From Podarcis erhardii (lineage: Eukaryota), in the NCBI GenBank assembly GCA_964252035.1, contig OZ176205.1: 64,000 bases of DNA. One strand, given 5' to 3'. The position numbers were made by a program, and so were the translations under genes. The notes under the pieces are model-generated. The model was not told where the DNA came from. It searched no databases and saw only the letters and a list, made by a program, of their open reading frames with translations. Numbering within the stretch: position 1 is the first letter of the stretch; every line of letters starts with the position of its first letter. This document shows positions 15,143-64,000 of the stretch, piece by piece.

Positions 15143-15753
15143 TGTGATGGCCTGGGATTCAGACTTGGAGGCTGAGCCTGAGGAATCTCAGCCTACACAG
15201 GAGTCCCCGCCTCCAGAACCAGCTGAGCCGGGGCTGGGGCTTGAACTTGAAGGGTCCTCACCTGTGCTGGATCCTCAGGTGCAGGCACCAGCTGAGTCTG
15301 CTCTGGCTCCTGAGGTGATGGAGGACCCATTGCCTGCAGGTACTCCACTCTCAGCCCCATCAGGGGAAGCTGAGGTTGCCTCTGGGTCTGGTAACCCTCC
15401 AGCCTCTCCTGAGCTACAGAGGCTCAGGGCAGAGAGGCAGAGGGAACTAAGTTCCCGCAAGAGGAGTGCTCGCCTCCAGGCCAGGAGAGGCGAGTCACCT
15501 GTGGACCAGGGCTGCCCTATGCCTCGGGGCAGATAAAAGCCAGCCAGCCCCAGTCCCAGGTTGTGGAAGCAACATTGTTGGCAGCCTGTTCCTGCCTGCA
15601 CCCTCCTGTCCTGCTCTCCTGCCAGAGTCCTGACCTCACCCGACTCCCTGCCTTGGACCCTGCTTCAGCTTTGACGGACAGCCTCCATACAGCACCCTCG
15701 ACCTCGGACTGGACTCGGACCTCGCTGCACAGTTAACCCTCGGGACCAGCACA
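15143..15753 (+). mobile_element. Solo LTR, family A (611 bp; probably Gypsy-type, clade not proven)
   Basis: TG...CA termini; perfect 5-bp TSD GCTGG (15138-15142, 15754-15758); TATA-like GATAAAA at 15532; homologous to 48870-49480. Confidence 0.9.
15144..15536 (+). CDS. LTR(U3)-encoded 130-codon acidic Pro/Glu/Ser-rich frame with a basic C-terminal motif (retroelement-derived, not a host gene)
   Basis: Open from LTR base 2 to TAA; SPELQRLR..RSARL..GESP.DQ shared with 48871-49296 through synonymous codon changes. Confidence 0.6.
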   Translation: MMAWDSDLEAEPEESQPTQESPPPEPAEPGLGLELEGSSPVLDPQVQAPAESALAPEVMEDPLPAGTPLSAPSGEAEVASGSGNPPASPELQRLRAERQRELSSRKRSARLQARRGESPVDQGCPMPRGR

Positions 15754-25833: not shown

Positions 25834-25982
25834 ATTGAGTCTTCAGTGTGTATCTGAAGAAGTGTGCATGCACACGAAAGCTCATACCTAGAACTAACTC
25901 AGTTGGTCTTTAAGGTGCTACTGGAAGGAATTTTTTTATTTTGTTTTGACCATGGCAGACCAACACGGCTACCTATCTGTAA
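25834..25982 (+). mobile_element. Penelope-like element terminal fragment
   Basis: 15-bp TSD CTGCACAGACTCAGA (25819-25833, 25983-25997); near-identical to 54998-55123. Confidence 0.85.
25850..25887 (+). ncRNA. Minimal type I hammerhead ribozyme motif
   Basis: GUAU-CUGAAGA-A-GUGUGC-AU-GCACAC-GAAA-GC-UC-AUAC: stem I GUAU/AUAC, palindromic stem II, catalytic boxes CUGANGA and GAAA, palindromic AGCU in place of stem III. Confidence 0.8.
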
Positions 25983-47894: not shown

Positions 47895-48377
47895 TGTCAG
47901 ACGGCTGCAAGCAACTCCCACAGCCGGTTGCCAGGAACGTACAAAGACAAGGAAAAGTTTCTTACTGTCCGCTTTTTATTCAATATTTGGAACACAGTCT
48001 CATGGATAATGGCGTTGTCCCAAGTGAATCTGCATCCCCCTTCTCTCCAACTTCCTCATTTGTCCTCATCACCTCCTGTACGGCTGCTGCTTAGTGCTTT
48101 CTGTCTTTGAGCTTTTTGTTCTCCTGCTTTTAAGGCTTGCCAGGGTCTGGGAGATGGCGGGTCTGGATTGCTTTCTAGTGACAATGTGTCAGCCAGCTGC
48201 TGTTCTGGCTCTGCCTACTCCTTCTCTCCCATTATTTCCCAACTTTTCCCCTCATCTGCCTCTGAGCTGTGACTTCCTTCAACCCCCTGTTGTAATTCTG
48301 AACTGTCTTCCTCTTCTCTTGAAGGGTCAGGCTGGGGAGGTGGTCTCCACCATTCCTCCTCTGCCCAGTCCCTGACA
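47895..48377 (-). mobile_element. Solo LTR, family B (483 bp)
   Basis: TGTCAG...CTGACA termini; 5-bp TSD CCCTC/CCCAC restores the CR1 sequence; AATAAA on the minus strand near 47975; homologous to 62507-63765. Confidence 0.9.
48056..48376 (-). pseudogene. LTR(U3)-encoded 106-codon acidic frame of family B, one internal TAG
   Basis: VRDWAEEEWWRPPPQPDPSREEEDSS...HSSEA...SWEIMGEKE*AEPEQQLADTLSLESNPDPPSPRPWQALK...; aligns with the frame in the 62507 LTR. Confidence 0.6.
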
Positions 48378-48869: not shown

Positions 48870-49480
48870 GGTGATAGCCTGGGACTCGGGCTCAGACTCG
48901 GAACCAGAGGAGACTCAGTCTGTACCGAATCCTTTGCCTTCATCTGAACCAAGTCTGGGGCCTGATCCTGAAGAGTCCCAGTCTGCACAGGTTCCCGTGC
49001 AACAAACACCAGCTGGGCCGAGTCAGGGGCCTGAGCCTGCCCTGGCTCCAGATGCGGGGATGACCTTGTTTCCTTCAGCTGGGCAATCACTTACAGCTGC
49101 TCCACTACCAGTTGGGTCAAGAGAGGTTGAGGCGGCCCCTGGGTCTAGTAACTCACCGACATCTCCCGAGCTGCAAAGACTAAGGTCTGAGAAAAGGAGA
49201 GACCTGAATACTCGCAGGAGGAGTGCTCGCCTTTGGACGAAACAGGGTGGTGAGTCGCCAGGGGATCAGGACCGGCTGCTATCCCGACAAAGATAAAAGG
49301 CTGTCGGACCCCGCCCCAGGTTGCGGGAGCAACATTGCTGTATGCTAGATCCTGCTTGAGATCCTGTACCTGTCCTTGCCTTGTTTCCTGCCTCGTGGCC
49401 CTGCCTTGGCCCTGTCAGACTGACTCCCAGTGGAAGCTTTGGATTCTGGACCGGTCCTGGACTGTGGTTCACGGGTTACC
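48870..49480 (+). mobile_element. LTR, family A, second diverged copy; 3' end lost or interrupted
   Basis: Colinear with 15143-15753, including GATAAAA and CCCAGGTTG.GG.AGCAACATTG; no terminal CA or TSD found. Confidence 0.8.
48871..49296 (+). CDS. LTR(U3)-encoded 141-codon acidic frame ending RRRSARL...R-stop (retroelement-derived)
   Basis: Open frame VIAWDSGSDSEPEE...SPELQRLRSEKRRDLNTRRRSARL...GESPGDQ; paralog of 15144-15536. Confidence 0.6.
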   Translation: MIAWDSGSDSEPEETQSVPNPLPSSEPSLGPDPEESQSAQVPVQQTPAGPSQGPEPALAPDAGMTLFPSAGQSLTAAPLPVGSREVEAAPGSSNSPTSPELQRLRSEKRRDLNTRRRSARLWTKQGGESPGDQDRLLSRQR

Positions 49481-54885: not shown

Positions 54886-55123
54886 AACAAAAAATTCCTT
54901 CCAGTAGCACCTTAAAGACCAACTAAGTTAGTTCTAGGTATGAGCTTTCGTGTGCATGCACACTTCTTCAGATTCGTGTGCATGCACACTTCTTCGTATC
55001 TGAAGAAGTGTGCATGCACACGAAAGCTCATACCTAGAACTAACTTAGTTGGTCTTTAAGGTGCTACTGGAAGGAATTTTTTGTTTTGACTATGGCAGAC
55101 CAACACGGCTACCTATCTGTAAC
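54886..55123 (+). mobile_element. Penelope-like element fragment with an inverted 5' duplication
   Basis: 12-bp TSD TAGGTAAGATAT (54874-54885, 55124-55135); perfect 88-bp inverted repeat. Confidence 0.9.
54996..55033 (+). ncRNA. Minimal type I hammerhead ribozyme motif (mirror copy with a stem I mismatch on the minus strand at 54938-54975)
   Basis: Same GUAU-CUGAAGA...GAAAGCUC-AUAC core as 25850. Confidence 0.8.
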
Positions 55124-61445: not shown

Positions 61446-62809
61446 ATGGATGTGATTTTGTTGTTGGGTGCAGATAGATGATAAATAGATGATATTCTGT
61501 ATCTATATTTTCTTTTTCTTTTTTTGTATCTTAAAACCACTTAAACTACTATGTTAATGTCTTTCAAGTTCAAGAAAAGACTGCTGAATCTCATTAAAAT
61601 GAAGTTAAGCATCTTTGTTTGTTTTTTTTAAAAAAGAGGTGAACTACACTCTATTTTTCAAAAGTAAATTATTAGGACATAAAATGTGTCATGTTCTTTC
61701 CTCTGAACTTTAGATATTCGTTTATTTGCAAGGGATAGGGGAATTCAGGGTCACAAAGCTGCAAAAAATCAACATCATTAAGCTCTATACTTTATTTATA
61801 TTGGTGGATTAATATAATATATTTTTAGTTGGGATTTAAAGTCATAGTTTGGAATTAAGAATTACTCTCTTTCCTGGTCCATGACATACATAAAAAACAA
61901 AGGAACCAATATTGATCAGTACAGATTGATCCCAACAGCCTAACCTACCTCACAGGGTTGTTGTGAGGGTGAAGTGAAGGTCAGGAGAAGAACCGTGTGC
62001 TCCAACTAATCAATCAATAAACACACACACACACACACACACCAACATGAGGCTACAATGGGAAATGCCGCACCAGGAACTGGAATTTGCAGATGCCTCT
62101 GACTGTCAGCAAGTCATCCAATAAAAATCAAATTGAGAAGCACACTTTTTAAAGATGTAAGCTGATTTACTTCTTAGATATTTGGTGAAGAGAGCGCCAT
62201 GTGCTGTTTCATTCAAACTCTATCACATTTCAGCTCTTTCTTATATGACATAGCCTTTTGGTAATACAGGGTGATTTTATGGGTATTTCATTTTCATTGA
62301 TTTAAGTTAAATAAAATGATGGGGTGATTTCTTTTTTCTTTTTCTTTTTAGCTGAACTGCAATAAATATTGAGAGACACTTTTTGTAAGGAATTTGAGCT
62401 CCTCATGTTAACACCCAGCACTGGATCTATCCCAGCACACTGGTTCTCTATGGTTGTGATCCTATACACATTAAACTGAGGCAAATTCCATTTAATTCAG
62501 CTGTGCTGTCAGGGGCTGGACTGAGGGGGGGGGCAGCACCCCCCTTCGACTGAACCTTCCCGAGAACAGGAAGACAGTATAGATTTAGAACAGTGGTTTG
62601 CAGAAGGGCATAGTTCAGAGGCTGCAGAGAGGAGAAGCTGGGAAATATTGGGAGAGGAGCGGGAGGAAGAGGAAGCACCAGGGGAGAGTCAGCTGACAGA
62701 CTCAGTGTCTTTGGAAAGCATTCCTGACCCCCGCCCTCCCAGGACCAGACGAGCATTGAGGGTAGCAGAAAGCTCAAAGGCAGAAAGCTCAGATTAGCTG
62801 TCTCAGGGG

Positions 62810-63227
62810 CAAACTGTACGTAGTGATGCCGCACATGCGCCCTATGTAGCGGTTTCCTGACAGCGCCGCTTGAGTGCCGTACAGATGGTGCCGGGATCCT
62901 CTGCTCATGGCTGCAGCTGTGAATGGAGGATCTTCTACATGAGGTTGTAGCGGTGGCGGAGGGATCCTACCGCCATCCATACGACGCTAGAGTGGCTCTG
63001 GCGGCAAACCGCTATGTACAGCACAAGTGCGGCACCATTACGTACAGCGCATGTGCGTGACACCGCACATGCGCTGTACATAGCGGTTTGCCACTGGTGC
63101 AAGGATCCTCCACATGCGGCTGTTGTGGCGCGATGGCTACAAGCCATCCCGTGGGATGCCTTCTTGTCACCCCCCCCCCCGACATGGCACCTGAGGCGAA
63201 CTGCCCCCCCCCATTGCGGCAGCACTG
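62810..63227. mobile_element. CpG-rich hAT-like MITE inside the LTR
   Basis: Right end ...GCAGCACTG; flanking CTCAGGGG/CTCAGGTG possible 8-bp TSD; internal hairpins. Confidence 0.55.
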
Positions 63228-63347
63228 CTCAGGTGTGATGTAGAATAGGAGAGACGTACATACGGGGTGGGACTTTACTTGGAGCAACTCCATTATCTAC
63301 GAGAGACCGCATTCCTTTCTCTCTCTCTGTGAATATTGAATAAACTA

Positions 63348-63693
63348 CACGGGTGGCGCTGTGGGTTAAACCACAGAGCCTAGGACTTGCCGATCAGAAG
63401 GTCAGCAGTTCGAATCCCCGCGATGGGGTGAGCTCCCATTGCTCTGTCCCTGCTCCTGCCAACCTAGCAGTTCGAAAGCACGTCAAAGTGCAAGTAGATA
63501 AATAGGTACCACTCCGGCGGGAAGGTAAACGGTATTTCCGTCTGCTGCTCTGGTTCACCAGAAGCAGCTTAGTCATGCTGGCCACATGACCCAGAAGCTG
63601 TATGCCAGCTCCCTTGGCCAATAAAGCGAGATGAGCGCCGCAACCCCAGAGTCGGCCACGACTGGACCAAATGGTCCAGGGTCCTTTACCTTT
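63348..63693 (+). mobile_element. Sauria SINE inside the LTR
   Basis: GGGTGGCGCTGTGGG head, GTTCGAATCCC B box, CCTTTACCTTT tail. Confidence 0.95.
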
Positions 63694-64000
63694 AAGAACT
63701 CTTCTTGTTTACCTGCTTTTTGGCATCCCACTGGGGGAGGGATAGGATTCCCTGAAGCCTTGACATGTGCTTACTTTTGAATATACATGTTTAGGATGCA
63801 CAGCAAGTCTTCGGTTTTACACACACTTACATGGGTGTATAAATGTTCAATAAAACAAAAGAATTAGATGGTTGAATTTACATTGCTGGTGGTGGTTTTA
63901 TTTGCAATTGAGTTCTGTGTTCTGTTTTATTAAATATTAATAAAATTATTAAATAAACAGAGTGACACACAACTCTAAAACGTCTGTCTCCAAACTGAAA

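Follow-up and report, generated by a model that had tools for sequence, protein, structure and literature searches.

The 64,000-nucleotide stretch of Podarcis erhardii DNA analysed here (the window) contains, on the minus strand at positions 47895-48377, a solo LTR of 483 bp. There is little doubt that this LTR derives from a lizard chromovirus of the Tf1/sushi type and that its reading frame 2 is the C-terminal tail of Pol. The explanation as a whole, in which the frame is a selected Pol tail that likely gives integrase a second means of being targeted to chromatin or the nucleus, is very probably correct. The window copy itself is a dead remnant.

The solo LTR and its relatives in the window

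The LTR belongs to subfamily B1 of family B. It is bounded by TGTCAG...CTGACA, carries the target duplication GTGGG/GAGGG and was inserted into a fragment resembling a CR1 LINE. The ends of most family B copies read TGTCAGG...CCTGACA, from which the window copy is one base off (TCTGACA). The tail frame occupies 48056-48376 (minus strand), about the first two-thirds of the LTR, with 106 codons and a TGA, and starts without ATG. Re-reading confirmed the peptide and the coordinates given by an earlier sequence-only reading: the frame begins at 48376, its TGA lies at 48058-48056, and a premature TAG (48217-48215) breaks it. An S-P motif followed by a predicted basic helix lies at 48089-48154 (minus strand), within that third of the tail where constraint is strongest; this segment reads SPRPWQALKAGEQKAQRQKALS in the window copy, whereas sister copies, L014 for example, have SPRTRRALKVGEQ. 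An AATAAA at 47975-47980 (minus strand) is likely the polyadenylation signal of the LTR.

The window holds a second family B solo LTR, of subfamily B2, at 62507-63765 on the plus strand, with a perfect TGTGC/TGTGC duplication and later insertions interrupting it from about 62790. Family A is present twice, both times on the plus strand. A solo LTR at 15143-15753 (target duplication GCTGG/GCTGG) has an open tail frame of 130 codons (15144-15533) with KRSARL close to its end, and an LTR of subfamily A2 at 48870-49341, the 3' end of which is not defined, has an open tail frame of 141 codons (48871-49293) with RRSARL. A 91-nt inverted repeat (99% complementary, 18-nt spacer) was also observed at 54886-55085, with related copies at 25850 and 58546; it likely consists of head-to-head short elements.

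Family B is a high-copy LTR family. In a genome search, 40 of 2527 first-look candidates were scored, and 29 B1 copies were extracted from 30 loci, one being left out as interrupted. With ends called automatically, target duplications were perfect in 12 of these 29 copies and matched at four of five positions in 8, and no flank adjoining the LTR was common to different loci. The target duplications and unshared flanks thus identify the family B copies as solo LTRs. A further, very divergent solo LTR of the same plan (FPRTRRKLKWEEQ helix) was seen at L031:1512-1990. A derivative recurring at seven loci (L033, L043, L045, L047, L052, L061, L063) consists of a short LTR stub, a GAGGAG run, pre-polypurine-tract sequence and a whole LTR, and looks like the product of a whole-interior deletion at short homology.

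Continuity of the pol frame with the 3' LTR

A pattern search for a G-run before the LTR start revealed that the polypurine junction of GGGGGTGA with TGTCAGG recurs at several loci; reading across it gives GGD followed by VR. The first polypurine pattern had matched 8 places, none of them with internal sequence. Chromodomain sequence was found upstream of the B LTR at three loci (L046, L064, L065), two of which (L046 and L064) also keep integrase sequence; at L064 the reading frame of the chromodomain continues via GEGGD into VRDW. The end of a chromodomain precedes the B LTR at L067 as well, and sequence upstream of the LTR at a family D locus (L092) matched Pfam SH3_Tf2-1 and Chromo. Thirty loci with an internal stretch were classified as in frame (10), out of frame (10), without anchor (7) or without junction (3); by our reading, about six of the ten out-of-frame calls are mis-placed junctions or lost LTRs. 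Both landmarks were present at nine B-lineage loci, six of which are in frame (five with a spacing of 119 nt) and three one base off, some of these loci being likely neighbouring duplicates (L067/L070, L075/L086).

An intact family B element was searched for in the genome loci and not found, the B junction being seen in decayed copies; likewise, neither a family B 5' LTR nor its primer site was found in four upstream regions and L100. The latter, a decayed B-lineage copy, matches gag-pol residues 124-1478 in order, giving the domain order gag-PR-RT-RH-IN, which is intact in family A. Paired LTRs were detected in 8 of the 12 regions fetched for relatives. In all eight, the longest frame has its end within the 3' LTR; six of them reach 311-358 nt, and the other two, which are broken copies, stop sooner. 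The clearest layout is that of L136, with identical (100%) 600-bp LTRs and a single gag-pol frame of 1624 codons ending about 355 nt into the LTR. This LTR is about 70% identical to the window sequences 15143-15753 and 48870-49341, which are taken to be family A of the sequence-only reading. Past the chromodomain, the frame also runs uninterrupted in families F and H, for 172 residues in L130, 146 in L133 and 144 in L135.

In family A, a TATA-like site lies about 10 nt or less past the stop of the tail and the complement of the primer-binding site about 30 nt further, an arrangement that self-priming elements would be expected to show; the predicted transcript start is downstream of the stop. 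An exact 10-nt complement was identified in the LTRs of L136, L144 and L141. In family H the complement falls inside the tail frame, so that the label 'U3' is inexact for some families and provisional for family B.

Two observations concern the distribution of the elements. L136, L137, L139 and L144 belong to a family of very recent origin: about 100 of the matches listed are nearly identical, and many have open frames of 1500-1670 codons. Fifteen of the first 30 listed decayed elements keeping internal domains are located on one 30-Mb contig (C19), which is possibly a low-recombination or sex-limited chromosome.

Selection on the tail frame and its predicted structure

Selection on source elements was estimated from net distances, that is between-subfamily minus within-subfamily distances, which isolate source-element divergence. 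A first run on 29 B1 and 30 B2 copies, six of the latter trimmed to 295 nt, gave a net dN/dS of 0.33 for frame 2 (95% bootstrap 0.18-0.55). The other sense frames gave 2.3 and 2.4 (2.2-2.4 overall) and the antisense frames 1.8, 2.2 and 0.47, the last of which is read as a shadow of shared third positions. A second run was restricted to 22 of the 29 B1 and 17 of the 30 B2 copies, the rest having mis-called ends or insertions. Here net dN/dS was 0.30 for the whole of frame 2 and 1.1-1.9 for the three sense frames past the stop. By thirds of the tail it was 0.62 (0.2-2.05), not distinguishable from neutral, then 0.34, and 0.15 (0.05-0.37) over codons 67-99, which contain the S-P-R-T-R-R helix and have a dS of 0.95. 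The last pair of values indicates that amino acids, not bases, are kept on the helix segment. Frame 2 of family B is under purifying selection, which is strongest over the S-P-helix segment.

These results bear on the starting observation of the sequence-only reading, namely that at least 13 residues identical between the window copy and the paralog at 62555-62770 use different synonymous codons. Fourteen were counted, all nine listed codon pairs included, among 39 identities in 69 aligned residues (pair dS 0.61, dN 0.29), and the first-run estimate for frame 2 makes clear that the synonymous excess persists in the larger alignment. The coding frame proposed for U3 is thus selected; it is no stand-alone U3 gene, being the last 105-140 or so residues of Pol, reached via the polypurine tract.

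Within subfamilies, singleton changes look neutral (152 non-synonymous, 36 synonymous, 8 stops), which is what decay following insertion would give, and shared variants carry a weak signal only (56, 33 and 4, respectively). Stops per 100 codons amount to 1.55 in frame 2, about 4.7 in the other sense frames and 1.62 in one antisense frame. Frame 2 is open in 8 of the 29 B1 copies. Since that antisense frame is about as poor in stops, openness was treated as weak evidence. The in-frame indels of the family B alignment sit largely in GAG/GAA repeats. When L144 was compared with three young copies, dN/dS was 0.43-0.47 in the family A tail and 0.08-0.10 in RT/integrase; tail dS (0.16-0.18) was below that of RT/integrase (0.26-0.31), so that DNA-level constraint contributes.

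The tail is acidic over its first 60-80 residues and basic thereafter. AlphaFold2 models of six B copies showed a confident helix at 76-97 (pLDDT about 90), a weak helix at 58-66 and little structure elsewhere. The B tail is predicted to be a disordered acidic spacer with one basic helix. Outside B1 and B2, the motif SP[RK][ST]R was found at 8 of 28 loci (two of them duplicates), one a B3 locus and the others from families D, E and F. Each time it stands on the sense strand, 281-450 nt past the chromodomain, against a window background of 1 in 128,000 positions; none of the family A, G or H loci among the 28 has it. When frames were ranked with an HMM built on the B helix, it placed 11 sense-strand frames at the top of 168 ranked frames, with mostly weak scores.

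The family A tail has a different ending, S-P-E/D-L-Q-R-L-R-x-E-R-x-R followed by RRSARL or KRSARL, which is kept across A subfamilies that are 43-59% identical. RRSARL is intact in 19 of 30 A2 copies, and several of the losses (RRSAHL, RRSACL) fit CpG decay. All 36 matches of [RK]RSARL in the 1.94 million translated positions of 247 loci fall in family A tails, and the motif is absent from the family B alignment. Its RRSAR codons display no synonymous change between A subfamilies, and a 23-codon estimate of dN/dS was 0.34 (0.07-1.32). The parallel that had been drawn between the A and B architectures holds by position, by tree and by one short motif; homology over the whole tail was undetectable, the comparison of A and B profiles by HHalign giving a non-significant probability of 6%. 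As a separate observation, 75% of the 99 best-scoring A2 copies (query 48871-49293) on the ten largest contigs lie near a contig end, within the outermost 30% of the way from end to middle, compared with 19% of 36 B1, 19% of 27 B2 and 42% of 91 young A copies. This end bias may be an insertion preference or result from best-match selection favouring GC-rich regions.

Several other explanations of the frame were weighed. An artefact of composition, on a purine-rich and T-poor strand with GAG repeats, would account for the 41 T in the first 321 nt and for the antisense frame that is about equally open, and triplet slippage could give indels in multiples of three. It has next to no chance of being correct and was rejected, however, as the synonymous excess is specific to frame 2 against the other-frame and after-stop controls and the frame is continuous with pol. 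Two further candidates were discarded as well, an endogenous retrovirus LTR because the linked pol is that of a chromodomain Ty3/Gypsy element, and a domesticated host gene because the copies decay neutrally. It is very improbable that the frame is an accessory gene of its own which overlaps U3, in the manner of nef or sag, and is expressed by way of a spliced transcript or by solo LTRs. Such a gene could start at the in-frame ATG at LTR nt 5-7 of family A, where the public gene models P0107-P0110 begin, and a protease could free the tail as a protein of its own. Against this, gag-pol of intact elements runs into the frame without a break, the window copy offers no ATG before about codon 50 and few B1 copies are open. 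Moreover, with TATA-like site and transcript start past the stop, a family A solo LTR cannot transcribe the tail from its own promoter.

It is possible, though less likely than not, that the read-through of Pol is real and its product mostly a passive spacer, in which only an NLS-like basic patch or an open frame is kept while promoter DNA conserves the rest. The weak constraint on the acidic part, the lower dS of the LTR relative to pol and the large differences between the tails of the families are compatible with this, as is the short read-through into the LTR in fish elements (P0098, P0018). Against a mere spacer stand the net dN/dS of the helix segment at its high dS and the recurrence of SP[RK][ST]R in families D, E and F.

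The lizard clade and its comparison with known systems

A tree was calculated from 52 sequences and 310 integrase-to-chromodomain columns (LG+G4, ultrafast bootstrap), with no rows dropped; it rests on integrase, not RT, and is without a named reference such as Sushi-ichi and without Anolis, snake or turtle elements. All tailed lizard families and the named Podarcis and Rhineura proteins form one clade (bootstrap 96), sister to a fish and amphibian clade (83), the two being joined at 85. Family A branches first, and family B lies inside a group supported at 100. The proposal that coding U3 is general to a clade of squamate LTR elements is upheld in so far as coding 5' LTR sequence is common to this lizard clade (families A, B, D, E, F and H, and named Podarcis and Rhineura proteins).

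Among 95 proteins inspected, the residues after the chromodomain number 98 in Rhineura (P0001) and 164 in Podarcis (P0004), and 6 in Paramormyrops, 9 in Ranitomeya, 10 in Pleurodeles, about 32 in Cirrhinus and 67 in Xenopus. The remaining long C-termini of named proteins seem to be products of fused gene models. Extensions of 260-500 residues past the chromodomain also occur in several proteins without a name, and a link of these to an LTR is not assumed. In Takifugu (P0098), about 45 residues are read beyond the purine tract. Podarcis muralis has an annotated Pol with 97% identity. For the family B tail, no longer protein relative was found among 8000 scored candidates and no match in Pfam or the ESM Atlas; the family A tail was without match in the ESM Atlas, and its profile gave 8 matches in 1.84 billion representatives, all in Podarcis, so that the host range was not extended. 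Public Podarcis gene models P0107-P0110 and P0113 begin with or contain the LTR frame of family A, in two cases joined to domains that look like host sequence. They are likely annotation artefacts, and annotators should be warned that several Podarcis gene models start with the LTR tail frame.

In the selected-tail explanation, the pol frame of a full element runs from integrase through SH3, chromodomain, acidic linker and polypurine tract into 105-140 or so codons of the 3' LTR. The tail would be made as the end of Gag-Pol and would likely stay on integrase. Reverse transcription copies U3 into both LTRs, and recombination between LTRs leaves solo LTRs. The coding U3 is thereby duplicated to both LTRs and then spread over thousands of solo copies. 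Selection acted on the source elements during their replication, and inserted copies decay neutrally. No new gene is needed to account for the protein-like signal that thousands of solo LTRs show in lizards, and these elements are a case of a retrotransposon in a vertebrate in which selected coding sequence and promoter region coincide.

The flexible acidic spacer may present the basic helix beyond the chromodomain, together with an arginine anchor in the case of family A, and so could make a second contact with chromatin or import factors. Judged from sequence, a chromatin-binding role of the tail falls a little short of probable; a role as chromatin tether is plausible, with more support in family A than in family B. 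More tentatively, the lizard clade may have recruited the greater part of its LTR as a further chromatin tether of integrase, independently of plant CRM elements and with the chromodomain kept, family A mimicking the HMGN anchor by RRSARL and families B, D, E and F using an S-P-R/K-T/S-R-R helix. If so, swapped tails would steer the insertion site of each family.

Retroviral genes overlapping U3 are known as lentiviral nef, MMTV sag and foamy bet, which are separate genes. The lizard frame likewise places coding sequence in U3; it is instead fused to pol, in a Ty3/Gypsy element.

The V-clade is a named clade of vertebrate chromoviruses (PMC2774666) of the Tf1/sushi type, including Sushi-ichi and the Amn-ichi (Anolis), Amn-ni and Amn-san elements. 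The lizard elements share with it the chromodomain at the end of integrase, and the ends of the family B LTR fit the Sushi motif TGTYANR...CNTNACA given in Table 3 of PMC3601003. Lizard family A has a candidate binding site of the self-priming type; no 5' junction of family B was found in the regions searched. Named fish and amphibian Pols mostly stop about 6-67 residues past the chromodomain, whereas Pol of the lizard elements continues with an acidic linker and some 100-140 LTR-encoded residues. Among the papers that literature searches listed, judged by title and opening of the abstract, none describes such a tail in a vertebrate element or an HMGN-like motif in a retrotransposon; the description of Amn-ichi, supplements, Repbase or Dfam may note the overlap.

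The RRSAR segment of HMGN2 is reported to contact the acidic patch of the nucleosome (PMC12487698). The RRSARL or KRSARL of family A tails resembles the HMGN/Dsup motif RRSARLSA and is a candidate nucleosome anchor; the final SA of this core is missing in family A, and family B is without the motif. Should nucleosomes prove to be bound by the tail, a transposon would be mimicking HMGN, in direct parallel to the CR motif of plants, and a short peptide would make the insertion-site choice of chromoviruses testable.

In plant CRM elements, which are centromeric chromoviruses, the CR motif is reported to take the place of the chromodomain (PMC6317226), and its partner has been called unidentified (PMC3059260). 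The pol frame of CRM group A (CR motif, CHDCR) extends into the 3' LTR, likewise in the lizard elements. The chromodomain was lost there, whereas the lizard elements keep it upstream of the polypurine tract. Host kingdom and clade differ, and the likeness drawn here is one of layout. The layout has a precedent in plant CRM elements and, within the literature covered, appears new for vertebrate chromoviruses.
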